A stretch of 26,947 bases of DNA from a virus (IMGVR_UViG_2744054854_000001:1-26947), one strand, 5' to 3'. Counted from the first letter of the stretch, positions 168 to 15,599 are shown. Program-made: numbers and translations. Notes: generated by a model not told the origin, from the letters alone.

Positions 168-716
168 GTGGTCACACTTTGCCACGTGTTCGGGGTTCAT
201 CGCAGCAGCTACAAATACTGGGGAAAAAGCCTCGAAAAGCCAGATGGCAGGCGAGCTGTGTTACGCAGTCAGGTTCTGGAGCTGCATAACATCAGTCATG
301 GTTCTGCTGGCGCAAGAAGTATCGCGATTATGGCAACCCTGAGAGGCTTTAAAATGGGACGCTGGCTTGCCGGAAAGCTCATGAAAGAACTGGGTCTGGT
401 GAGTTATCAGCAGCCTACCCACCGATATAAACGTGGTGGTCATGAACACATAGTTATCCCGAATCGCCTTGAGCGACAGTTCGCAGTGACTGCACTGGCT
501 CATCGCGACTGGACACGCTTTGTTGAGATAGAGATTGGCTTGTATAGCAATCGATTTGAAGTTATTAGCCCAGGGGCGCTGAATAATTCGATGTCGGTTG
601 AAAAGATGGTTGCAGGTCAGCGTTCACCACGTAATACGATTATCATGGAAGTCTTACGTGATTATGGTTACGTTGATTTCAGGGGATGGGAGTCAGGACA
701 AAGATTATTCCACTAA
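168..716 (+). pseudogene. IS3-family transposase OrfB-like remnant; only the N-terminal ~110 codons look transposase-like, the rest is degenerate
   Basis: Translation [17 protein letters not shown] ... [41 protein letters not shown] ... [20 protein letters not shown] fits the conserved N-terminal region of IS3-family OrfB; no DDE catalytic region follows; no intact upstream orfA frame. Confidence 0.45.
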
Positions 717-857
717 CACAGGCCATGAGTGGCCAATACCCTGAGTTTACTGCAACAGATGATTATTTGAAAACAATACTTTATCGCTCACCATCGTCTT
801 GATATATAAGGTCTGGCCTTTCCATCCATAAGAAAGGCCATTGCTGTAAAAAATAAA

Positions 858-1484
858 TTACCCGCGACTGCAGCCGAAATTACGGTCCCCATCACCGACT
901 ATTTTAGTTCTTACTTTGGTCATGTAATCCACCCTGTTCATCAAATCGCTATAAGTCTGCTCAAAGTTGTCCCTTTTACGATTTAGGAGATATTTTCCAT
1001 TTGATGGGTAATTAACTAGCTTCCCAGAGTCATCTATCGGGATGCCAAGTGCACTGTACCAGGCTGTTGTTATCATTGTACGTAACGTGTTACGCTTTAA
1101 GTCATAATCCCCCAAATGATAATAAGCATCCTGATTGAAACACAATATCAGATGGTAATGCCGTTTTCCATTTTTGGTATATTCTCGGACCCATGCGTAA
1201 CGTAAGGTTGAATGTCGGGTATCAGGCCAGTCTTTTCGTTGAGTTTTAATATGCTTATCGTGTTCAAGCTTTGCTTTTAACGCACTGGTAAAGCGAGATA
1301 TAGCACCAGAGTCAACTCTGGGTTGAAAGAATGGGTTATCCATATTTTCTGTATCAATTGGATCATGCAGATCAACACGAAGAATCATTGAGTTAGGATG
1401 TTCGTTGAGGGAGTCATCAATAACCTGTTGTATTCTATCCCGATATAGGGATACGTGTGATCCGAATTCACTATCGTATGTCAT
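858..1484 (-). CDS. YagK/YfjJ-family protein (inovirus Gp2-like), with an HUH-like motif
   Basis: 208-aa ORF; motif KRHYHLILCF (H-hydrophobic-H then hydrophobics) followed by Tyr-rich segment; position next to yfjI-like and alpA as in CP4-57/CP4-6 islands. Confidence 0.55.
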   Translation of the reverse strand: MTYDSEFGSHVSLYRDRIQQVIDDSLNEHPNSMILRVDLHDPIDTENMDNPFFQPRVDSGAISRFTSALKAKLEHDKHIKTQRKDWPDTRHSTLRYAWVREYTKNGKRHYHLILCFNQDAYYHLGDYDLKRNTLRTMITTAWYSALGIPIDDSGKLVNYPSNGKYLLNRKRDNFEQTYSDLMNRVDYMTKVRTKIVGDGDRNFGCSRG

Positions 1485-1614
1485 ATTGTATCCTATTTAT
1501 TGATATTGGTGTAGGTAATATATACAATATATATTACCTATCATGATAACAAACTATTAGCCGGACTGGGCTCGGTGTTTGTTTTTACTCCTGAATTAAA
1601 ATCATTTGTTATCA

Positions 1615-3030
1615 TCAAAGCACGGGGTTTAAACCAGCTATGGTTATCAATGTGGTTTTGCCTTTCTTTGCCACTAGTATTCTATTTTGAGAGTACAACA
1701 TACCGAGTAATTCATTTGCTTTACTACGCTTTCTAAATTTATTAGGACCATATTGGAGAACAGTATTTTTAGTAATGTAAGGTACAACAAGGCGGTTACA
1801 ATGATTTTTTATCCACCAATAAAGCTCATCCGCCTCCGAGATTGCGGGCGTTAATTCCTGAGGTTTAGAAAATATGTGGATGTACTCATTAACATACCAG
1901 GTAGTTATCTTCACAGCATCTTCGACTGCAGAAAGAGATATATCTCCATCATTGCCATTAAAATAATGCAGCAGAGAGGCCACTCTGGCCATATTTTCTG
2001 CGACCTTAGATGCATAGTCTCTAAAATCTGATAAGGTGCCGAGTAAGCCCATATCTGACTCCACCTTGTTATAAAATTCGATCCAGCGATTTTCTGCTTC
2101 TACAGAAAATCGCAGGCAAAGACGATCATTTTGATTATCTCTGGCAATACTTTCGTTAACTATCTCCATCAGTCGTTGATGGAATACCGGCAAATGTTCG
2201 CTTGAAACAACGGGGCTGGAGATTCTTCTGGAACCTTGCTTTGAATCAGGCTGGCATATGAGACATCGAGCGAAAAAACCGATCCCTTTGGCTGTATCGC
2301 CTTTACGTTGCAGATAACCTTTAAACACATCAGGCTGAACCATAAGTGCTAGCGTCAGTCTGGCATCTCTGATTAATTTCTCTGGCTCACTTTTCCTTTC
2401 CACTGAAAATGTTGCGCCATCCCACATTTTGTTGATGAAAGGCAGTTCGTTCAGCGTGTAACCGTTAAAAATAGTGCCAGCCTCATCAGACATGATACCG
2501 ATAGATCGCCAATAACCACAGAGGTAATCTTTAATAGCCGCAGGAGTGGCATCATTAAATATCTGCTTGAACCTGATCGGTGGTTGCTGGTGCGACGCCA
2601 ACAGCGCTTTAAGTTGTTCATTTGTCGCCAGATGATCTTTGTTACGGCGAATATCTGATTTGAGTTTTGACATCAGTGCTTTTCTTTCAAAATTAAAAAT
2701 TTCTTCATCACTTCGCCAGGTATTAAGAGCATGCGTGTACTTATCAAATAATTCTTCCTCCAGTTGATATAATGGCTTCATCAGCATTTTATCAACCGTA
2801 CTTTTCCGTTCGCCAGATTCTGCAAGTGTCAGCAAGTAAAGTGATACTGGGCTACGTAGATTAGTAAGTCGACAAACATCAATCCGGTTCTGACAGGCAA
2901 GAGATATTACCCCAAGAGCAGAAGCAGCAATCAAACCTTGAGGGGCCTGCGTATGCTGTTCCACTTCATAAATTGCATTTCTGATAATCTGAGGGAACGC
3001 ATTTACAGGAAAAGGATGACCGTTAAACAT
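1615..3030 (-). CDS. YfjI-like DUF3987-family protein (putative island replication/primase-associated protein)
   Basis: 471-aa ORF starting MFNGHPFPVNAFP; size and position directly downstream of alpA match recalled E. coli YfjI. Confidence 0.55.
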   Translation of the reverse strand: MFNGHPFPVNAFPQIIRNAIYEVEQHTQAPQGLIAASALGVISLACQNRIDVCRLTNLRSPVSLYLLTLAESGERKSTVDKMLMKPLYQLEEELFDKYTHALNTWRSDEEIFNFERKALMSKLKSDIRRNKDHLATNEQLKALLASHQQPPIRFKQIFNDATPAAIKDYLCGYWRSIGIMSDEAGTIFNGYTLNELPFINKMWDGATFSVERKSEPEKLIRDARLTLALMVQPDVFKGYLQRKGDTAKGIGFFARCLICQPDSKQGSRRISSPVVSSEHLPVFHQRLMEIVNESIARDNQNDRLCLRFSVEAENRWIEFYNKVESDMGLLGTLSDFRDYASKVAENMARVASLLHYFNGNDGDISLSAVEDAVKITTWYVNEYIHIFSKPQELTPAISEADELYWWIKNHCNRLVVPYITKNTVLQYGPNKFRKRSKANELLGMLYSQNRILVAKKGKTTLITIAGLNPVL

Positions 3031-3156
3031 ATAATACCTCTAATACAATTCACGTTAAAAAATTCTGCGCAAGTTGTTATTCCGCTATTAATAGCAGAAA
3101 TAGCAGGATGAAATAACTCTAATTACAACATTTTGAATGTATGTTAGGTAATTACT

Positions 3157-3369
3157 TCAAATAAGTTTGCTGCGTTGCAATAGCCATTCATCAATCTCTG
3201 ATTCAACCCATCCAACAGATTTCACTCCGAGCATTCGCTTTTTGGGGAAGGAAGCGTCGTAACGCGGTGATTTGGGGTTCAACCAGTCGTAGATTGTTGC
3301 CCTTGCCATACCAGTTTTTTGGATTACCGTAGGTAAGCGGAGTATCCTAACGGTTGATGGATTGTTCAT
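3157..3369 (-). CDS. alpA: AlpA-family transcriptional regulator (prophage regulatory protein)
   Basis: 70-aa ORF MNNPSTVRILRLPTVIQKTGMARATIYDWLNPKSPRYDASFPKKRMLGVKSVGWVESEIDEWL, near-identical in pattern to recalled AlpA of CP4-57; HTH in the N-terminal half. Confidence 0.85.
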   Translation of the reverse strand: MNNPSTVRILRLPTVIQKTGMARATIYDWLNPKSPRYDASFPKKRMLGVKSVGWVESEIDEWLLQRSKLI

Positions 3370-3494
3370 GCTTGATTGCCTCTCGTTAGTTCATTTTGGT
3401 TGTAGAAAGATTAGCGGCAAGCATTAATGCAAAAAATCCGCGTACCAAAAATACATTTTTTACAACACTTAACTAATTGATATTTGGTGTTTTT

Positions 3495-4373
3495 ATGTTG
3501 ACAGCGATTGAGTTTTGCGAAGAAATTAGTCAAAAATCGGTTTGTCTTTCTGGGCAGATGGTCGAATGTGATTGGGACATATACATTGATATGCTCAGCG
3601 AAAGTTATCCTGCGATACTGAAGGAACTAAGCGAAATGCGAGATCAGTTCTGGAATTCTGATAAGGTAGGAACACGTGTGGTTTTGTATAGTGCTCCATC
3701 TCATGAAGAGTATAAATATTATACTGGTGACAGAGTGGGTCAATTAATAGAGGAATATGCTGAATTATATGATCCAGTTCAGGAATGCTGGAAAGAGTTA
3801 AAGTCACGTATTTTCAGGGGAACATTTTCTCATCTTATTCAGGATCCTTTTTTAATTAATGATGTGTTTAAATCACATCTATTTTTTGCCTCGATGTCTT
3901 ATCAATGGGGAAAATCAGTTATGTCAGAGAATGAGTGTGTTGCTATTAAAGCATTCATTAAATCTTCTGAATTATTTGATAGATGTATTGGTATGTCATG
4001 GTTTCATGTTTCTGTATGTGCTCAAAAAAAATTATCCCATGTTAGAGCTAAAGCCGGAAAACAAGGTGGGAGCAGTAAAGCGGAAGTATATCGAGTAATT
4101 CAAGATAAACTTGTTTATTTGATCAATGAATCTGTTCCTGAAGGTGGGTGGAAAAGTAAAGCAGCTGCGGTAAATGCTCTCATTGATCCTTTGTGGGACT
4201 TTATTAAAGAGTCAAATTTTGACATTAATAATGAAAGTAAAAAATATCGTATCGCAACAATGAGCCAAGATGCTTTGGAAGATACCATTATTAAAAACTG
4301 GTCAAGAAATATTGAAAGTATCAAATTGGCTTTAGATAATACAGTTGCTAGAAAAAAGAAAGTCACAGGATAA
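3495..4373 (+). CDS. hypothetical protein, AT-rich cargo gene between integrase and alpA (YfjH-position)
   Basis: Long open frame (track 3477..4373; ATG at 3495 preferred over the TTG); no recognisable motif; markedly AT-rich relative to flanks; divergent from alpA. Confidence 0.5.
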   Translation: MLTAIEFCEEISQKSVCLSGQMVECDWDIYIDMLSESYPAILKELSEMRDQFWNSDKVGTRVVLYSAPSHEEYKYYTGDRVGQLIEEYAELYDPVQECWKELKSRIFRGTFSHLIQDPFLINDVFKSHLFFASMSYQWGKSVMSENECVAIKAFIKSSELFDRCIGMSWFHVSVCAQKKLSHVRAKAGKQGGSSKAEVYRVIQDKLVYLINESVPEGGWKSKAAAVNALIDPLWDFIKESNFDINNESKKYRIATMSQDALEDTIIKNWSRNIESIKLALDNTVARKKKVTG

Positions 4374-4399
4374 AAGCCCGTATTATTAATAGTTGAATT

Positions 4400-4424
4400 A
4401 TCAGCACCCATTATGGGTGCTGAT
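4400..4424. terminator. perfect hairpin between convergent genes (bidirectional terminator candidate)
   Basis: atcagcaccc / gggtgctgat inverted repeat with short loop lying between the 3' ends of the cargo ORF (+) and the integrase (-); flanks AT-rich but no clean U-tract. Confidence 0.4.
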
Positions 4425-4431
4425 AAAGGAT

Positions 4432-5673
4432 TCATCCCACAAGCCGTATTCCCCTAACCCCACTATTAACGATACTGCCGCTATCTGCTGCTTTTACAAA
4501 ATCAGCCCACCATTGCATCATCGGACGACGTTGCTCAAGATAATCACTGCGGTTATAAGCGCGACGCACCTCATTTTTGTCTACATGAGCAAGCGCTGCT
4601 TCAATGACATCAGGTGGAAATCCTTCCTCATTGAGTGCCGTACTGGCGATAGAACGCAAGCCGTGTGAAACAAGTACACCTCCTAAGCCAGCACGCTTGA
4701 GTGCTGCATTCACTGTTTGGCTATTCATTGGTTGGTTGGGCTTGATACGGCTAGGAAAGATAAATTCTCGGCCACCACTGAGAGGCTTCATCATTTCCAG
4801 AATAGCAAGAGCCCCATCAGATAGTGGAACCGTATGGTCCCGGTTCATCTTCATTCGAGCTGCAGGAATTTTCCATTCGCTAGCATTGAAATCGATCTCA
4901 TCCCATCGAGCCTCAGCAGCTTCGGCAGGGCGGGTGATGGTTAGAAGTTGCCACATGAACAGGCATCGTGTGGACAGGCTGATACTTGCCGTGCGCATAG
5001 TCTGCATTAATTGTGGAAGTTGATCCGGGCGGATACTAGGCATGTTTTTCTTCTGCGGTTTCTCGAATGCTTTCCCGATGTTAACGCTGGGAACAGCATC
5101 AATTAGGCCTGTGTTCTGAGCATAAATCATGACTTCGTTAATACGCTGACAAAGGCGGCGAACAGTCTCTAATGCACCTCTGGCCTGAACCGGCTGCACT
5201 GCTTTAACCAGAGTATGAGCCTTAATCTCGGTGACACTGATATCACCGATTGCTGGGAAAACATCTCTCTCAAGCGAGCGCCAGATATCATCGGCATAGT
5301 CCTCTGTTACGCTGGCTTTCTTCACATTCCACCAACGCTCGGCAACTAACAGGAAAGTGTTGGTTTTAGCCTCTTGAGAATTTCTAACCTGCTCTTTCTG
5401 ATGTTCCTGAGGATCAATGTCTTTCGCCAATAAAACTCGAGATTCAGCTCTGAGTTTACGCGCATCAGAAAGGGAGACAGCAGGGTAGGCTCCGAAGCTT
5501 TGCTTGGTTCGCTGTTTTGTCAGAGGTCGATAGTAACGGAATTGCCAGAGCTTACTACCACTGGACTTGATTAACAGAGTAAGCCCGTCACCATCATATA
5601 GCTGGTAATCGGCATCTTTAGGTTTGGCGGCTTTGATTTCCGTATCGGTTAACGGCTTGGTTTTTCTTGCCAT
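4432..5673 (-). CDS. intA: tyrosine integrase, CP4-57 IntA-like
   Basis: ORF track 4432..5709; preferred start ATG at 5673 giving MARKTKPLTDTEIKAAKPKD, the typical N-terminus of P4/CP4-57-type integrases, with GGAG RBS upstream; C-terminal HGLRS...Y catalytic region. Confidence 0.85.
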   Translation of the reverse strand: MARKTKPLTDTEIKAAKPKDADYQLYDGDGLTLLIKSSGSKLWQFRYYRPLTKQRTKQSFGAYPAVSLSDARKLRAESRVLLAKDIDPQEHQKEQVRNSQEAKTNTFLLVAERWWNVKKASVTEDYADDIWRSLERDVFPAIGDISVTEIKAHTLVKAVQPVQARGALETVRRLCQRINEVMIYAQNTGLIDAVPSVNIGKAFEKPQKKNMPSIRPDQLPQLMQTMRTASISLSTRCLFMWQLLTITRPAEAAEARWDEIDFNASEWKIPAARMKMNRDHTVPLSDGALAILEMMKPLSGGREFIFPSRIKPNQPMNSQTVNAALKRAGLGGVLVSHGLRSIASTALNEEGFPPDVIEAALAHVDKNEVRRAYNRSDYLEQRRPMMQWWADFVKAADSGSIVNSGVRGIRLVG

Positions 5674-5796
5674 GGGGAGTCTCCATGCGTTTAGGCCCAA
5701 CGAAAACAATAGAGCTTTTCGTTGGGCCTATCAATGGGCCTAAAAGGTTCGGATTTAATTAGTTCTCTTCGGACTTCGCGGGACAAAGTGAGGGCA

Positions 5797-6038: not shown

Positions 6039-7064
6039 TTAGCGATGCCAGTTGAGGTTATGAAGTGGATTTTTGGTAACGGCATCTTCCAGATGATCCG
6101 GTGCAAAATGGGCATAAATCATGGTCATTTTAATATCAGCGTGCCCTAAAATATCCCTCAATACTAAAATGTTTCCGCCGTTCATCATAAAGTGGCTGGC
6201 GAAAGTGTGGCGCAGAACGTGGGTACATTGACCTTCAGGTAGTTCAATTCCAGCTCGTTTTACCGCACGCTCAAAAGCCTTTCGGCATGGTGTGAATAAC
6301 TTTCCTCTGTTTTTGGGTAATTCTTCATACAGTTCCTGAGAAATAGGAACAGTTCGGTTTTTCTTTCCTTTTGTTTTGGTATAGGTAATTCGATACTTTG
6401 ATATCTGGTTACCTTGCAGGTTTTCGGCTTCGCTCCATCTTGCCCCGGTTGCCAGACAAATCTTGGCAATCATTAGCAGACTGGGACTTTGAGATTCAGC
6501 ACAAGCGTCAAGCAGGCGTTTGATTTCATCAGCAGCAAGGAACGCCAGTTCACCCTCTGCAATTTTGAAAGTTGGCAGACCGGCGAGAGGGTTGGGTGCA
6601 GACCAATGTCCCAGCTTTTTCAGTGTGCCAAAAACTGAGGATAGGTTACGTTGTTCAAGGTTCACCGTTCTGGGCTTAACTGGTGACATGAGCACACCAT
6701 CTTCGTTTTTGACCTCACCTTTTAATCTGGCTTCCCGGTATTTTGTGAAATCACCTGCTGTCAATTCAGAAGCGATGGGATCGCCAAGCCCATTACAAAT
6801 GATTTTTAACTTAGCCATTAATCGCTTAGGGTCAGCGAGTGTCTGACCGTACAGGGAATACCATTGCTCAATCACTTCTGACAGTTGTCGCCGATCTTCC
6901 TTTTCTCCCAGCCAAGGTTTCTTGTTTACCTCGTCCATGGTGAAATTCTCAAACGCAATGGCTTCGCCTTTCGTCGCAAATTGTTTGCGTACGCGTTTGC
7001 CATCTCGCCCGTTTGGGTAGCATTCACATAACCACTTTCCGTTCGGCTGTTTTCTGATGGTCAT
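6039..7064 (-). CDS. int: prophage tyrosine integrase (P2/186 family)
   Basis: 341-aa ORF, catalytic HxLRHTFAS...Y region near C-terminus; start codon 1 nt from the stop of the upstream repressor gene (cI-int operon); 3' end adjacent to the att core. Confidence 0.9.
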   Translation of the reverse strand: MTIRKQPNGKWLCECYPNGRDGKRVRKQFATKGEAIAFENFTMDEVNKKPWLGEKEDRRQLSEVIEQWYSLYGQTLADPKRLMAKLKIICNGLGDPIASELTAGDFTKYREARLKGEVKNEDGVLMSPVKPRTVNLEQRNLSSVFGTLKKLGHWSAPNPLAGLPTFKIAEGELAFLAADEIKRLLDACAESQSPSLLMIAKICLATGARWSEAENLQGNQISKYRITYTKTKGKKNRTVPISQELYEELPKNRGKLFTPCRKAFERAVKRAGIELPEGQCTHVLRHTFASHFMMNGGNILVLRDILGHADIKMTMIYAHFAPDHLEDAVTKNPLHNLNWHR

Positions 7065-7065
7065 A

Positions 7066-7698
7066 TCAAAGGCTCTTAATGATTTTCAGTGCGCGGCCTA
7101 TTACCTTAATGTCATCCAGTTCGCACTCAAACGATGAATCATCCTGATGCACTACTAATCTGTTTCCCGGGAGTCGTGTCAATTTTACAATGCTTTTTAT
7201 CCCGTCGATGTCCACTAACCACGTACCATTTACTGGTGGTGTTTGGTTGCGATCTATTAAATAAGAATCACCAGAAGTAGTCACCAGCAGCAGGTTGCTT
7301 GAGTCTGAGGGGAGTATGCTGCTATCAATGATTGCTTTTCCAGCATCGACCAATAAACCACCGTTGAGAGTTGCCTTTTCAATTTCAGGAGATACAAGCT
7401 CAGAAAGAGGTTTAACCTTGCTGGGGTTCACGGAATTGATATTTTTTTTAGGGTCAATGTTTGAACCTGGCTCGCCCTGTCCGGTGGTTAGCCATAGTAA
7501 AGAAACTCCTGTTTCCAAGGCGCACTGAATCACCCATTCTGCGGGAAAGCTATCTCTTAAGTATCTGTTTGCCATAGTGCTTTTTGATGCACCTAAGTGA
7601 TCGCAAAGTTGCTGTCTGGACTTGAAATCATAGGCTGCCATTAGTCTATGGATAGCCTCTCTTCCCCCTGTATTCTCGCCAGCTTTTACCTGTATCAT
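7066..7698 (-). CDS. cI: 186-type CI immunity repressor
   Basis: 210-aa ORF; N-terminal HTH and C-terminal segment TWLVDIDGIKSIVKLTRLPGNRLVV...FECELDDIKVIGRA closely resembling recalled 186 CI (LWLVDIEGAISIRELTKLPGRKL...FECGIDDIKTLGRV). Confidence 0.8.
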   Translation of the reverse strand: MIQVKAGENTGGREAIHRLMAAYDFKSRQQLCDHLGASKSTMANRYLRDSFPAEWVIQCALETGVSLLWLTTGQGEPGSNIDPKKNINSVNPSKVKPLSELVSPEIEKATLNGGLLVDAGKAIIDSSILPSDSSNLLLVTTSGDSYLIDRNQTPPVNGTWLVDIDGIKSIVKLTRLPGNRLVVHQDDSSFECELDDIKVIGRALKIIKSL

Positions 7699-7710
7699 TT
7701 CTTAATCCTA

Positions 7711-7762
7711 TTGACGTATCAAATATTGGATCGTAGTATCTCGATGTATCAAATATTGAATC
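7711..7762 (+). promoter_or_regulatory. lytic promoter candidate (TTGACG-N17-TAGTAT) overlapped by two 17-bp direct repeats, probable repressor operators
   Basis: TTGACG at 7711-7716, TAGTAT at 7734-7739; repeats GTATCAAATATTGGATC (7716-7732) and GTATCAAATATTGAATC (7746-7762), 16/17 identical, 30 bp apart, between divergent cI and apl. Confidence 0.45.
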
Positions 7763-9121: not shown

Positions 9122-9188
9122 CCAACTAATGAAATTCATGGCGTAAACCCGCCGGGCATCCCTTTATCTAAATTCAGGAGAATTGACA

Positions 9189-9422
9189 ATGCGTAATATT
9201 GAAACCCGCGCCACTAAAACCGGACCGGATGATGCAGGGCTTAATCTTTTACTGACAGAGGCTCGTCTGGAAGAACGCCGGGCAAGGGCTGAAGCAATGG
9301 CTGCCCGCCTTGATAGTCTTGCGTGTCATATCACATCCCGCCAGCTAAACCACGTCGAAGCGGCAGAACTGCTGCGTGTGACCGCTGAAGCAATCCAGAA
9401 CGAAGCGCAGGAGATCCACTAA
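9189..9422 (+). CDS. hypothetical early protein
   Basis: ATG at 9189 preceded by AGGAG; stop overlaps the next start (TAATG). Confidence 0.4.
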   Translation: MRNIETRATKTGPDDAGLNLLLTEARLEERRARAEAMAARLDSLACHITSRQLNHVEAAELLRVTAEAIQNEAQEIH

Positions 9423-9547
9423 TGGCTGATGCAATGGATCTCGTACAGCAGCGCGTTGAAGAAGAACGCCAGCGCCATAAAAAATGCATTACCTGTCAGG
9501 AAATCGCAGAGCTGAAAGGCAAACATTACAACGGAGGTGCTGTATGA
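9422..9547 (+). CDS. small ORF (41 aa) resembling the C-terminal half of a TraR/DksA-type zinc-finger protein
   Basis: [41 protein letters not shown]; single CxxC followed by K-H-Y as at the C-terminus of TraR-type proteins; start overlaps upstream stop, stop overlaps dam start (ATGA). Not in the ORF track (short). Confidence 0.3.
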   Translation: MADAMDLVQQRVEEERQRHKKCITCQEIAELKGKHYNGGAV

Positions 9548-10398
9548 GCACCATCCTGAAATGGGCGGGAAATAAAACCGCCATAATGTCCGAACTGAAA
9601 AAGCATCTTCCTGCTGGCCCGCGACTGGTTGAACCTTTCGCGGGTTCCTGTGCAGTGATGATGGAGACGGATTACCCCAGCTATCTTGTTGCGGATATTA
9701 ATCCTGATTTAATCAACCTCTATAAAAAGGTTGCTGCTGATTGTGAGGCGTTTATATCTCGTGCCAGAGCTTTATTTGAGGAAGCAAACAGGGAGGTGGC
9801 TTATTACAACATAAGGCAGGAGTTTAATTACTCCACTGAAATTACTGATTTCATGAAAGCGGTATATTTCCTGTATCTCAATCGTCACGGTTACCGTGGT
9901 TTATGTCGCTATAACAAGAGCGGGCATTTCAACATTCCCTACGGTAATTATAAAAATCCGTATTTCCCTGAAAAAGAAATTCGCGCATTTGCAGAAAAAG
10001 CCCAGCGGGCAACGTTTATCTGCGCCAGCTTTGATGAAACGCTGGCGATGTTGAAGGCGGGGGATGTGGTGTATTGCGATCCGCCGTATGACGGTACGTT
10101 TTCCGGCTATCACACTGATGGTTTCACTGAAGATGACCAGTATCACCTGGCATCCGTTCTTGAACATCGAGCATCTGAAGGACATCCGGTCATTGTTTCT
10201 AACAGTGACACGTCTTTGACCCGGTCTCTTTATCGTAATTTCACTCACCACTACATCAGGGCGAAACGCAGCATCGGCGTTGCAGCGGGGGAGGGAAAAT
10301 TTGCAACAGAGATGATTGCCACTAAATCTGCTAATTGGTTTAGTGCCGATTTTAGTAGGGGACGTGACTCTACTGTTATTTTCGGGGTGCAAGTGTGA
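9544..10398 (+). CDS. dam: DNA adenine methyltransferase (Dam-like, predicted GATC N6-adenine MTase)
   Basis: Start ATG 9544 (track 9484); LKWAGNK, EPFAGS (AdoMet binding), [15 protein letters not shown] and DPPY motifs collinear with E. coli Dam. Confidence 0.9.
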
Positions 10399-11225
10399 AA
10401 GAAATGCACCACGGAATTCATCATTTCCATGGGACGCCTGTCTGGGGAAGTGCTGGCGACGTTCATCGTATTGCGGTGAGCGGAGCTGGCGCTTTCGTCT
10501 CCTATGTACGACCAGATCAGATTGCGGCGTCCATTCAGCACGCTCAGGTCGTCGGCATTGATAACGGCGCATTTTCTGCATGGGTGCGTGGGCTAAAAAT
10601 TAACTGGAGTGATTTTTATAAATGGCTCCTGAACTATTACCACCATCCTAAGGTCGCTTTTTTTGTCATTCCTGATGTTGTGGACGGCGGTGAACGTGAC
10701 AATGATGCCCTGATAAACGAAGTTCCGAAAATGTTCTACGGGAAGGCAACTCCCGTCTGGCATCTGCACGAGTCAATCGATCGGCTTATCGAGCTATGTC
10801 GTGAATGGCCTCGTGTCTGCTTTGGATCGTCTGGTGAATATGCGGCTATCAGAACTGCGCACTGGCATCGTCGTATGCAGGACGCTTTTGAAGCAATTTA
10901 TTGCCGACACAATTTCAAAACAGCTGTTCATGGTTTGCGCATGCTTGACGGTCGTGTGTTGGGAAATTACCCACTGGCGACTGCCGACAGTACAAATCTT
11001 GCCTGCAATGTCCCCAAATTTAATAGCAAATATCCTGAGCTTACGCGGGCTATTCAGGAGGCTGAGTATTCGCGCAATCTGACGGAAAAGGAGCTGAAAG
11101 CTGTCATTCTGAAAAACCGTTGCGCAATTTTAAAAGGTGCAATTGAAGCTGTTCGCCCACCTTCAGTTTCTGATTGGCTGTCGAATGGTTTGCAGCCTTC
11201 ACAGCTCGAACTGGAGATTGCGTAA
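10395..11225 (+). CDS. TGT-like (tRNA-guanine transglycosylase fold) protein, candidate DpdA-type DNA base-exchange enzyme
   Basis: 276-aa ORF overlapping dam stop and gene A start; ordered motifs GIDNGAF (cf. TGT DSGGFQ), FFVIPD, CFGSSGE (cf. GLAVGE), HGLRMLDG (cf. LMGVGKP) and ADST (cf. FDCVMPT nucleophile Asp); no C-terminal Zn-binding CxCxxC. CDS confidence is high; functional call is tentative. Confidence 0.55.
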
Positions 11226-13576
11226 TGAACTACAGCTATTCCTGGAATGCTGAGAAAAAAGCAATCAATCCTTACGTAGAGACAGAAGAGCAATCTTCAG
11301 TTTCTGCGCTTTCAAACCTGATCGCTCTGTACGCTGCCGATAACGAGCAGGAACACCTGCGCCGCGAGGTACTGAGTGATCAGGTCTGGGAGCGTTATTT
11401 CTTTAATGAATCCCGTGATCCTGTCCAGCGCGAAATGGAGCAGGATAAGCTCATTAGTCGGGCAAAGCTGGCGCATGAGCAGCAGCGTTTTAACCCGGAC
11501 ATGGTCATTCTGGCAGACGTCAGCGCCCAGCCCTCCCATATCAGCAAGCCGCTGATGCAACGTATTGAATACTTCAGCAGCCTGGGCAGGCCAAAGGCTT
11601 ATTCCCGCTATTTACGTGAGACGATTAAGCCATGTCTGGAACGACTGGAGCATGTACGCGACAGCCAGCTATCTGCATCTTTTCGTTTTATGGCAAGCCA
11701 TGTAGGGCTGGACGACCTGCTGATTCTGCCTGAAATGAGTCAGGATCAGGTGAAACGCCTGTCTACCCTTGTCGCTGCGCATATGAGCATGTGCCTTGAT
11801 GCAGCTTGTGGTGATTTGTATGCCACCGATGACGTTAAGCCAGAAGAAATCCGCAAGACATGGGAAAAGGTGGCAGCGGAAACCCTGCGTCTGGATGTCA
11901 TCCCGCCTGCGTTTGAGCAACTCCGCCGGAAAAGAAACCGCCGTAAACCCGTGCCCTATGAACTCATTCCGGGTTCGCTGGCGCGTATGTTGTGCGCCGA
12001 CTGGTGGTACCGGAAATTATGGAAGATGCGTTGCGAATGGCGGGAAGAGCAGTTGCGTGCTGTCTGCCTGGTCAGCAAAAAAGCATCTCCCTATGTCAGC
12101 TATGAAGCCGTGATGCATAAACGTGAGCAGCGCCGTAAGTCGCTGGAGTTTTTTCGTTCTCATGAACTGGTGAACGAAGACGGCGACACGCTGGACATGG
12201 AGGATGTGGTAAACGCCAGCAGCAGCAACCCTGCGCATCGCCGCAATGAGATGATGGCCTGTGTTAAAGGCCTGGAGCTTATCGCGGAAATGCGTGGTGA
12301 CTGCGCCGTTTTCTACACCATTACCTGTCCGTCACGTTTCCATTCCACGCTCAATAACGGCAGACCAAACCCAACCTGGACAAATGCGACGGTAAGACAA
12401 AGCAGCGATTATCTGGTCGGCATGTTTGCTGCATTTCGTAAGGCGATGCACAAAGCCGGGTTGCGCTGGTATGGCGTGCGGGTGGCTGAGCCGCATCATG
12501 ACGGTACGGTTCACTGGCACCTGTTGTGTTTCATGCGCAAAAAAGACCGCCGTGCCATTACTGCATTGTTGCGTAAGTTTGCCATCCGTGAAGACCGCGA
12601 GGAACTGGGTAATAACACTGGGCCGCGCTTTAAGTCTGAGTTGATTAACCCGCGCAAAGGTACGCCAACAAGCTACATCGCGAAATACATCAGTAAGAAC
12701 ATTGACGGGCGTGGTCTGGCTGGCGAGATCAGCAAGGAAACGGGGAAATCCCTTCGTGATAATGCTGAATACGTTAATGCCTGGGCGTCTCTGCATCGTG
12801 TTCAGCAATTCCGCTTCTTTGGCATTCCGGGGCGTCAGGCTTACCGTGAACTGCGATTGCTGGCTGGTCAGGCGGCAAGGCAACAGGGGGACAAAAAAGC
12901 AGGTGCGCCGGTACTGGATAACCCGCGCCTTGATGCCATCCTGGCTGCTGCTGATGCTGGTTGTTTTGCCACCTACATCATGAAGCAGGGCGGCGTACTG
13001 GTTCCCCGCAAATATCACTTGATCAGAACCGCTTATGAAATCAATGAAGAGCCGACCGCCTATGGCGATCACGGTATTCGTATTTATGGCATCTGGTCAC
13101 CCATTGCAGAGGGCAAGATCTGCACTCATGCAGTGAAGTGGAAAATGGTTCGTAAAGCCGTTGACGTTCAGGAGGCGGTAGCCGACCAGGGCGCTTGCGC
13201 CCCTTGGACTCGTGGCAATAACTGTCCCCCTGTTGAAAATCTGAACAAATCAGGGGGTGATTTGCCAGATATTAAAACCATGAATGAGCAGGAACTGCAC
13301 GATTACCTCCACAATATGGGCCAGAAGGAACGCCGGGAGCTGACAGCCAGGTTAAGACTGGTAAAACCGAAGCGGAAAAAAGCATTCAAACAGAGTATTT
13401 CGGAGCAGCAGCGCCTGCAGCTTGAGGCAGAACTGACTGCCAGAGGGTTTGAAGGTAGTGCATCTGAGATTGATTTGCTTCTGCGTGGTGGCAGCATTCC
13501 GTCAGGTGCCGGGCTACGGATTTTTTACCGCAACCATCGACTGCAGGAAGATGACAAATGGCGCCAGTGGTACTGA
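11225..13576 (+). CDS. A: replication initiation endonuclease gpA (rolling-circle initiator)
   Basis: Start ATG 11225 overlapping upstream stop (track start 11174); HUH motif HWHLLCF and tyrosine motif YIAKYISKN; size and position as P2/186 A. Confidence 0.9.
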
Positions 13577-13937: not shown

Positions 13938-14171
13938 ATGCGCATTGAAATAATGATCGATAAAGAGCAGAAGATTAGCCAGGCTACACTGGACGCCCTT
14001 GAATCCGAGCTTTACCGTAATTTGCGCCCTCTGTATCCCAAAACAGCAATTCGTATCCGTAAGGGCAGTGCCAACGGCGTTGAGCTGAGCGGGTTAAAAC
14101 TGGATGAAGATAAAAAGCGAGTGATGGAAATAATGCAGCAGGTCTGGGAGGACGACAGCTGGTTACATTAG
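13938..14171 (+). CDS. DinI-family protein
   Basis: 77-aa ORF MRIEIMIDKEQKISQATLDALESELYRNLRPLYP...KRVMEIMQQVWEDDSW collinear with recalled E. coli DinI (MRIEVTI...ALAGELSRRIQ...QRISEILQETWESADDW). Confidence 0.75.
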   Translation: MRIEIMIDKEQKISQATLDALESELYRNLRPLYPKTAIRIRKGSANGVELSGLKLDEDKKRVMEIMQQVWEDDSWLH

Positions 14172-14305
14172 CGAACGTTGCGGACGATAAAACTGGTTTT
14201 TACCGTCCGCAAGGTTGAACAACGAGCCACGCGAGGCGTTAGTGCTGTTGTGCATGTCTATGCCGCATGAAATCGCATGATCGTTTGAGGATCGTTTTTG
14301 CTCAG

Positions 14306-14332
14306 GCCCGCCAGAACTGGCGGGCTTTTGCT
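14306..14332 (+). terminator. rho-independent terminator after the SOS operon
   Basis: GCCCGCCAG-AACT-CTGGCGGGC followed by TTTTG. Confidence 0.6.
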
Positions 14333-14374
14333 TATGTCATGCAGGTGCATGAAAACCACTACACAAAGCGGGCA

Positions 14375-14393
14375 GGCGTGGCGGGGATACGAG
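14375..14393. other. candidate cos site (cohesive end region)
   Basis: GGCGTGGCGGGGATACGAG resembles the 19-nt cohesive ends of P2/186 as recalled (GGCG-GGCGGGGA...); located in the non-coding region just beyond the 3' end of portal gene Q, as in P2. Exact ends not verifiable here. Confidence 0.4.
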
Positions 14394-14463
14394 CGCGCGC
14401 AACGGGGTAAAATGGCCAAAATCCGGCACAGCCTCTGGCCCGCTGGCGGCCTCATTTAGTGGA

Positions 14464-14473
14464 GGGGGGGGGG
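14464..14473. repeat. G10 homopolymer tract in the cos-proximal intergenic region
   Basis: Ten consecutive G read directly at 14464-14473. Confidence 0.9.
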
Positions 14474-14555
14474 AGATTCAGGGCAAAAAGAAACGCCCCG
14501 CAGAATGCTGCTGAGGCGTTGTGAGAGTTGGTCGGGTTTTGATGTTATGAGTATG

Positions 14556-15599
14556 TCAGCCTCGTTTGCCCTTAAGCCCTAAGTCATAAGCTTCAAAACG
14601 GATCACCTCTTCATTCAGCCAGTCATTCAGCTCCTGCAGTCGCTTTTGCAGTGGCATCAGTTCATTGCGGACGAAGACACGGCTCGCTTTTTCCACATCA
14701 CCAAAGCCGCCAGTGTTGTTGGGAATGATGCCCATCATTTGCGGCGGTACGCGGTGAGCCGCCATCATGTCATCGCGGCTGACGTTCTTGATGTTCAGAA
14801 ATTCATCCTTCGCCGCGACTTCCGACAACGGGATAATCTGAATGCCATCTTTTTTGCCGTTAGGCGAGTACATAAACAGGTTGCGGAAGTTGCCCGGCCC
14901 TTTAGCACTTTTCATTGCCTTGCGGATGTTGTTCACATCCTCCTGGTTCTGCGCGGCGTCGGTCATGTACATGATGAAGCCTGCGTGGCTGCCGTTAATG
15001 TAATACTTGCGGCGGAACAGCGTGGCGGATTCGTTGAGCAGAGCTGACGGAATGGCAGAAAGGTAACCCGGCAGACCATAAATCTCCTGGTTGATATCCG
15101 GCTCCATCAGGTGGAAGACGTTACCTTTTGTGAACTGATACGGCTGTGTCGTCAGGCTGTATTGCACAAACCAGTATGTTTCAAGGTCAAGCCCGCGCCG
15201 GGTGTATTTTGCCAGTGCAGGCTCCAGCGAAATAACTTCACCAAAGCGATTCGTGCGCTTCTCCAGATAGGCGTTACCAAAAACCAGATAGTCCTGCACA
15301 AAACGGGTAAATGCCTGCTGGCTGAGAAGGCGATGTGGAATATAGGTACTGCTGATGATGTCACGTTTAACACTGATCGGGGAGCTGTGGTGCACGGCGG
15401 CGCGGAAGGTTCGTGCCAGTCCGTCAAAACTGACGGGCGGCTCATACCAGCGATCCATCTGTACGCATTCCACATAGTCCAGCAGTTCGCGGCGGTCCAG
15501 TACAGGAATGGGATCACCAAAGCTGAAAGCCTCAGCAACGGGTTTTTTAGTTTCTTCTGCAGTTACGGTTTCGCCTGGCGCGATATGTTCTTTCATCAA
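14556..15599 (-). CDS. Q: portal protein gpQ
   Basis: 347-aa ORF, 4-nt overlap with terminase gene P; size and position as P2 Q next to cos. Confidence 0.85.
   Translation of the reverse strand: MMKEHIAPGETVTAEETKKPVAEAFSFGDPIPVLDRRELLDYVECVQMDRWYEPPVSFDGLARTFRAAVHHSSPISVKRDIISSTYIPHRLLSQQAFTRFVQDYLVFGNAYLEKRTNRFGEVISLEPALAKYTRRGLDLETYWFVQYSLTTQPYQFTKGNVFHLMEPDINQEIYGLPGYLSAIPSALLNESATLFRRKYYINGSHAGFIMYMTDAAQNQEDVNNIRKAMKSAKGPGNFRNLFMYSPNGKKDGIQIIPLSEVAAKDEFLNIKNVSRDDMMAAHRVPPQMMGIIPNNTGGFGDVEKASRVFVRNELMPLQKRLQELNDWLNEEVIRFEAYDLGLKGKRG

Follow-up and report, generated by a model that had tools for sequence, protein, structure and literature searches.

The window analyzed here is the whole 26,947-nucleotide stretch IMGVR_UViG_2744054854_000001:1-26947, and the gene in question encodes a 276-amino-acid (aa) protein between a Dam-family DNA methyltransferase gene (dam) and the replication gene A of a 186/P2-like Escherichia coli prophage. 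The protein is a member of the phage DpdA family (PHROG 887), and its gene is called dpdA below. Judged from sequence comparison, it is probably an early-expressed DNA guanine transglycosylase, which would take a 7-deazaguanine from the host and place low-level marks beside those of Dam methylation. What the data show is the family to which it belongs, its fold, the conservation of active-site residues, purifying selection on the gene, and its place in the operon. An earlier reading made from the DNA alone (the sequence-only reading) had recognized the same family and had proposed that Dam and DpdA form a dual DNA-modification module.

The 276-aa protein is a phage DpdA

The 276-aa protein matched PHROG 887, annotated as "queuine tRNA-ribosyltransferase," with E = 2.4e-96. 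The DpdA of phage CAjan, which has been validated by experiment, belongs to the same group (E = 8e-96), and deletion of dpdA in CAjan abolishes 2'-deoxy-7-cyano-7-deazaguanosine (dPreQ0) (Hutinet et al. 2019, PMC6884629). When a profile of 72 family members was aligned with CAjan DpdA by hhalign, the probability was 98.8% (E = 4.9e-17, 172 columns). A direct BLASTP comparison of the two proteins gave E = 0.001 and paired GIDNGAFSA with FLDSGAFSA, FGSSGE with IGGMVG, VHGL with LHAF, and ADST with CDSS. The five motifs resembling tRNA-guanine transglycosylase (TGT) that had been picked out by eye are all present, in the order and places claimed: GIDNGAF (54-60), FFVIPD (89-94), CFGSSGE (142-148), HGLRMLDG (179-186), and ADST (197-200). 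The open reading frame (ORF) is a genuine gene, with 4313 homolog clusters; of stand-alone DpdAs, the search yielded ~900 clusters at 50% identity. The ratio of nonsynonymous to synonymous substitution rates (dN/dS) against relatives is about 0.04 (range 0.03-0.06), indicating strong purifying selection, and the compared homologs are all exactly 276 aa long.

The likeness to TGT does not extend to the canonical family model. Neither the 276-aa protein nor CAjan DpdA nor any of 71 relatives matched PF01702 at E <= 1, whereas the E. coli TGT scores 560 bits. The hhalign probability of the family profiles against the single E. coli TGT sequence was likewise below 1%, because such a template lacks alignment depth.

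An AlphaFold2 model of the protein (predicted local distance difference test, pLDDT, 88.3; predicted template modeling score, pTM, 0.86) has eight strand-helix repeats that form an eight-stranded beta/alpha barrel, i.e., the TGT-like (beta/alpha)8 barrel of a phage DpdA. Against the viral models of BFVD, Foldseek returned 30 matches with E <= 1e-3, the best at 1e-8, and many of them are named phage queuine tRNA-ribosyltransferase. Against the PDB the outcome was marginal: arcTGT reached E = 3e-3, with generic TIM barrels scoring close behind it. In the alignment of 72 sequences (26-74% identity), no more than six residues are invariant, namely D56, D94, H123, H179, D198, and S199, of which D56, D94, H179, and D198 are located at or just past the C-terminal ends of barrel strands. 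The catalytic residues of bacterial DpdA, Asp95, Asp130, His181, and Asp256, are also found at strand C-termini, where they act as the acid/base Asp, the base-reading Asp and His, and the nucleophile Asp. By motif order, D56, D94, H179, and D198 of the 276-aa protein are the putative equivalents of these four residues.

The zinc cluster CxCxxC...H is absent from the 276-aa protein, whose sole cysteines are C135, C142, C170, C204, and C243; its lack had been claimed correctly. There is nothing anomalous in this, since such a cluster is missing from CAjan DpdA too; the E. coli TGT has CDCYTC. The TGT fold and DpdA family that the sequence-only reading proposed are thus upheld by the shared PHROG, by the similarity recovered in profile and structure searches, and by an intact pair of catalytic Asp residues, D56 and D198.

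RefSeq labels the protein hypothetical, and the PGAP/RefSeq annotation starts it at ATG 10404 (273 aa). This start was rejected because the internal ATG is unconserved in relatives, which carry GTG or ATG at the exact position of 10395. The 276-aa form, which overlaps the dam stop codon, is therefore the likelier product. In one Logan assembly, the D12 domain of Dam and a DpdA of 100% identity are parts of a single 421-aa protein, which is probably no true fusion but the product of a frameshift or an assembly artifact at the GTGA overlap.

Organization of the early operon

The region is the early lytic operon of the prophage. Genes for a DUF2732 protein, a 41-aa ORF, Dam, the 276-aa protein, and gpA form a series in which the codons of neighbors overlap or abut (Table 1). 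The rightward operon opens with CII (CP76), Fil, and DUF5347, and a divergent promoter-like region lies to its left. E. coli AR_0017 and Citrobacter have the same gene order around the DUF2732 gene.

Each junction of the gene chain was found where the sequence-only reading had placed it. TAATG at 9420-9424 joins the DUF2732 stop to the start of the 41-aa ORF, and ATGA at 9544-9547 joins the stop of that ORF to the dam start. In GTGTGA at 10393-10398, dpdA begins with the GTG at 10395, which overlaps the TGA stop of dam (10396-10398), and TAATG at 11223-11227 links the dpdA stop to gene A. The adjacency of the 276-aa gene to a Dam-family orphan methylase in an early operon was confirmed as well. 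Overlaps of 1 or 4 nucleotides between start and stop codons are usual in phage early operons, so those seen here are not special per se. A scan for promoters and terminators gave match counts no higher than in shuffled sequence. A weak stem-loop with a T-rich run behind it is found at 10353-10375, at the end of dam and shortly upstream of the dpdA start; it may mean nothing, since terminator-like matches in the region are no more frequent than in shuffled sequence.

Table 1. Features of the window discussed in the text.
Feature	Position	Strand	Evidence or remark
DUF2732 early-operon gene	9183..9422	+	Pfam PF10809, E = 2e-29
41-aa TraR/DksA-type zinc-finger remnant	9422..9547	+	PHROG 54; alignment to AR_0017
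dam, Dam-family orphan N6-adenine DNA methyltransferase, 284 aa	9544..10398	+	DPPY motif; Pfam, TIGR00571, PADLOC
dpdA, 276-aa stand-alone phage DpdA (DNA guanine transglycosylase family)	10395..11225	+	predicted active site D56, D94, H179, D198-S199
gene A (gpA), replication initiator	11225..13576	+	Pfam Phage_GPA, E = 6e-128; start overlaps dpdA stop
Mosaic cassette (dam 3' end, dpdA, gene A 5' end)	10320..11299	+	blastn against Cartapus
Divergent promoter-like sites, cI / rightward early operon	7694..7739	.	promoter scan, consensus matches only
cI, 186-type CI repressor gene	7066-7698	minus	CI repressor domains
Tyrosine integrase of second element	4432-5709	minus	
DUF3987 protein of second element	1615-3030		
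YagK/YfjJ-family protein of second element	858-1484		
298-aa ORF of second element	3477-4373		unassigned

The product of dam matches PF02086 (D12, E = 1e-76) and TIGR00571 (E = 2.5e-95), the latter with a bit score of 319 where the cut-off is 115. It scores 290 against 441 on the host-Dam equivalog and so stays under that cut-off, and its best PADLOC match is an orphan methyltransferase (E = 1.6e-110). With the D12 domain, the DPPY motif, a score above the TIGR00571 cut-off, and no cognate endonuclease, it is classified as a Dam-family orphan DNA adenine methyltransferase, presumably of GATC specificity.

For the 41-aa ORF, the position and overlaps given in the sequence-only reading are right, but its status as a gene of its own is not. 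Its match to PHROG 54 (DksA-like zinc finger) is confined to the C-terminal 19 residues. Alignment with the 75-aa gene of the 100%-identical AR_0017 prophage reveals a 102-bp in-frame deletion by which the first CxxC was lost. A short AAAAA substitution marks the deletion junction, and both overlapping gene junctions are preserved. Relatives came from IMG/VR, where the 80 closest loci (identity 71-100%) are a redundant set, so that counts among them are descriptive only. Among these, 68 loci were assessable for this gene, and nearly all carry a TraR/DksA gene of ~70-75 aa; the full-length gene is also present in the best-matching complete E. coli genomes. From the alignment and the PHROG 54 match, an independent small gene was rejected in favor of an internally deleted TraR/DksA gene.

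Gene A, not dam, is the constant neighbor of dpdA in P2-like phages

The gene downstream of dpdA is gpA in 76 of the 80 related loci, whereas the upstream gene varies: it is Dam in 48 loci, DUF5405 in another 23, and TraR in 7. Part of the region is matched in 1243 of 5426 complete E. coli genomes, and the version with dpdA is found in 102 of them. More than 1,100 E. coli genomes have dam and A without dpdA, an arrangement about ten times commoner, and in Cartapus and RE2010 dam directly abuts A. The order of the window (Dam-DpdA-A), with the same 4-nucleotide overlaps, is seen in Citrobacter, and DUF5405-DpdA-A in Salmonella relatives. Thus, the replication gene is the constant partner of dpdA in P2-like phages, and Dam is frequent but optional. 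The module that the sequence-only reading made of the two genes was rejected as an obligate one because of this varying upstream neighbor; the Dam-DpdA-gpA arrangement is one mosaic variant among several.

The manner in which dpdA arrived can be seen from a blastn comparison with Cartapus. Homology is lost at 10319, within the last ~26 codons of dam, and is regained at 11300, ~25 codons into gene A, so that a dpdA cassette of 980 bp stands in place of 195 bp in dam-A phages such as Cartapus. Break points inside dam and gene A show that dpdA came as a recombination cassette rewriting the ends of both neighbors.

Homologs also occur outside replication modules. The BTP1 copy is located in a P22-like ea region, and in a lambdoid prophage of E. 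coli CP057104 (locus L012, 4001-4810) a DpdA homolog of 67% identity is flanked by the genes for holin and endolysin. This homolog is four genes upstream of a ParB_N-N6/N4 methyltransferase gene, a second and unrelated context in which a DpdA is near a methylase.

Comparison with relatives and known systems

Orthologs 75% identical to the 276-aa protein were found by tblastn in SEN1 and SI22, two P2-like Salmonella phages, directly upstream of the replication gene. Identity is 55% for the DpdA of Pantoea phage MED16, ~41% for those of BTP1 and SfI, and 34% for that of Salmonella phage 7-11. These stand-alone DpdAs of gamma-proteobacterial phages (SEN1 gp38, SI22, MED16 gp38, 7-11 gp032, BTP1 gp23) belong to the same family, PHROG 887, and, like the present prophage, their phages have no genes for synthesis of 7-cyano-7-deazaguanine (preQ0). 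In SEN1, too, dpdA is part of a P2-like early operon and is followed directly by gene A, but its upstream neighbor is a DUF5405 gene, whereas here it is Dam, with a stop codon that overlaps the dpdA start. In addition, dADG, the 2'-deoxynucleoside of 7-amido-7-deazaguanine, has been measured in MED16 and 7-11 DNA.

FolE, QueD, QueE, and QueC are absent from the prophage, as the AR_0017 prophage gene list and the ORFs of the window show only P2/186-type genes, which places it in the DpdA-only class. Any deazaguanine base would therefore have to be supplied by the host. The DpdAs of 9g, nt-1, and VH7D, expressed alone in E. coli, put host preQ0 or 7-aminomethyl-7-deazaguanine (preQ1) into plasmid DNA (PMC6884629), which makes dependence on the host pathway plausible here.

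Of the 182 viruses surveyed in 2019, 76 belonged to the DpdA-only group, and the Supplementary Data of that survey list SEN1 (P2virus), 7-11, BTP1, and SfI among them (Hutinet et al. 2019, PMC6884629). The singleton DpdAs fell into separate, fast-diverging similarity-network clusters specific to Mycobacterium or gamma-proteobacteria, and the authors regarded the modification state of such phages as difficult to foresee and their function as possibly diverged (PMC6884629). The DNA of 7-11 had dADG at 0.02% of G, and that of Orion had none (PMC6884629). MED16 virion DNA carried 0.13% of G as dADG and 0.27% of A as N6-methyl-2'-deoxyadenosine (m6dA) (Šimoliūnienė et al. 2021, PMC8306585), and the same paper gives SEN1 and SW9 as the closest viral relatives of the MED16 DpdA.

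The DpdA1 proteins of CAjan and 9g, which are validated DNA preQ0 transglycosylases, share the motifs DxGAFS, GG/SS-G, H, and DS(S/T) with the 276-aa protein but are only 22% identical to it. These phages have the full preQ0 pathway beside dpdA and 25-32% of G modified, whereas the prophage has none of the pathway. In the Dpd restriction-modification system, bacterial DpdA (S. Montevideo, PDB 7ui4) depends on the DpdB ATPase, has a structural Zn site, and is encoded in a dpdA-K cluster; here the neighbors are dam and gpA, with no DpdB/DpdC and no zinc site. Canonical TGT (PF01702) is ~100 residues longer and has both the Pfam match and the CxCxxC...H cluster that the 276-aa protein lacks. Cap10 of type IV CBASS is encoded in an operon with Cap9 (QueC-like) and a CD-NTase, and no such partners are near dpdA here.

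No description of a Dam-DpdA pairing in P2-like or temperate phages was found in the literature searched, and the tight Dam-DpdA-gpA arrangement was not met with there either. The sequence-only reading nevertheless overstated the novelty, given that the SEN1 ortholog was catalogued in 2019 and that m6dA and dADG were both measured in MED16. The protein family, its presence in P2-like early operons, and the occurrence of m6A and a deazaguanine in one phage are already known.

Proposed mechanism and alternative explanations

In the course of events proposed here, what the protein catalyzes, which base it inserts and in what sequence context, how much of the DNA it modifies, and whether the phage gains from it are inferred. 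A recombination cassette set dpdA between dam and gene A in an early lytic operon repressed by CI. Upon induction or infection, DpdA would be translated along with Dam and gpA and would flip guanine out of double-stranded DNA, with the base read by D94 and H179. The intermediate would be resolved by a host 7-deazaguanine, namely preQ0 made via FolE/QueD/QueE/QueC, which is recovered as dADG in relatives. Phage DNA would end up with rare 7-deazaguanine marks on top of Dam m6A. Judged from 7-11 and MED16, the modification level is probably far below 1% of G.

Several points weigh against this proposal. The protein had no match in Pfam or NCBIfam scans, in the PADLOC defense-system protein models, or among PDB sequences searched by phmmer and profile hmmsearch. 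The tested stand-alone-DpdA phages contain only trace dADG or, in the case of Orion, none, and no enzyme is known that converts preQ0 to ADG (PMC6884629). MED16 DNA showed no noticeable protection from restriction (PMC8306585), which, with dADG and not dPreQ0 at 0.02-0.13% of G in the closest tested relatives, speaks against the protective role expected in the sequence-only reading. The missing Pfam, NCBIfam, and PDB-sequence matches would also suit a generic TIM barrel unrelated to TGT/DpdA with coincidental motifs, as would the ordinary TIM barrels near in Foldseek score and the failed alignment with E. coli TGT. That explanation is scarcely credible, however, and was refuted by the PHROG shared with validated CAjan DpdA, the hhalign probability, and the BFVD matches; moreover, the MED16 protein reached 99.2% against T. 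maritima TGT in HHpred (PMC8306585). It is also unlikely that Dam and DpdA constitute a co-evolved, interdependent module that sets two marks against restriction. The genes are adjacent with a stop/start overlap both here and in Citrobacter/Enterobacter-type relatives (DpdA identity 72-100%), the arrangement recurs in those 102 E. coli genomes, both marks are present in MED16, and the lambdoid homolog is near a ParB-methyltransferase. Yet SEN1 and the Salmonella relatives have no Dam in the upstream position, which varies among loci, dam-A elements without dpdA predominate, and the cassette boundaries indicate dpdA recombined into a dam-A backbone. Phages often carry methylases, and the two genes may be neighbors by chance. 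Furthermore, loss of dPreQ0 in CAjan raises m6dA tenfold; dPreQ0 there appears antagonistic to adenine methylation and not additive, and deazaguanine and m6A marks may therefore compete instead of adding up.

The remaining alternatives accept the fold and concern what the enzyme does. The protein might be active on a substrate other than phage DNA, either tRNA or a protein as for the TGT-like Cap10, which acts with a deazaguanylated protein N-terminus, and the trace dADG of relatives would then be a side reaction. Cap10 retains the same Asp/His catalytic geometry, and the tested stand-alone-DpdA phages have 0.02-0.13% of G modified or none. We nevertheless regard this as improbable: no Cap9/QueC-like or CD-NTase partner is nearby, no PADLOC match was found, the sequence homology is to phage DpdAs acting on DNA, and bacterial DpdA modifies <0.1% of G and yet is a true DNA enzyme. 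There is similarly little to favor a stand-alone DpdA that kept the fold and diverged in role, setting a few site-specific epigenetic marks for replication or packaging or countering a host system reliant on deazaguanine. Such divergence would fit the fast-diverging clusters of singleton DpdAs, for which functional divergence was considered possible (PMC6884629), as well as the constant linkage to gpA and the very low modification in relatives. The invariance of all catalytic residues under strong purifying selection, however, fits an ordinary transglycosylase, and the homologs in the lambdoid lysis cassette and the P22-like ea region are not in replication modules. A more novel but improbable reading is that DpdA is no bulk modifier directed against restriction but writes rare site-specific 7-deazaguanine marks, possibly ADG directly, and that DpdA, Dam, and gpA together set a combinatorial epigenetic state. 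The sites could be, for example, the origin inside gene A or packaging sites of replicating phage DNA. If DpdA recognizes a target similar to the GA motif known for the DpdAs of CAjan and iggy, the marks would overlap or compete with Dam GATC sites. If true, this would give a function to the unexplained trace dADG of 7-11 and MED16.

Significance and surroundings of the prophage

Although the prophage dpdA reveals no new kind of system, stand-alone DpdAs are the largest and least understood class of phage DpdA. The prophage lineage is a convenient test system, being inducible, resident in E. coli (~2% of complete genomes), and accessible to established host que and dam genetics. Elements of the types dam-A, DUF5405-dpdA-A, and dam-dpdA-A offer a natural comparison, by which cooperation and competition of deazaguanine and m6A marks could be told apart.

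A second integrative element occupies 168-5709, directly left of the prophage integrase (6039-7064). This region is unmatched at the AR_0017 locus, where the prophage therefore has a different integration context. The whole window is devoid of tRNA and tmRNA genes, and the attachment site is not marked by a tRNA gene. After DinI, in a slot that is empty in the window (14171-14556), a Citrobacter relative (locus L008, 7857-8831) carries a HEPN_Toprim_N / HEPN_RiboL-PSP gene, which is likely defense cargo.

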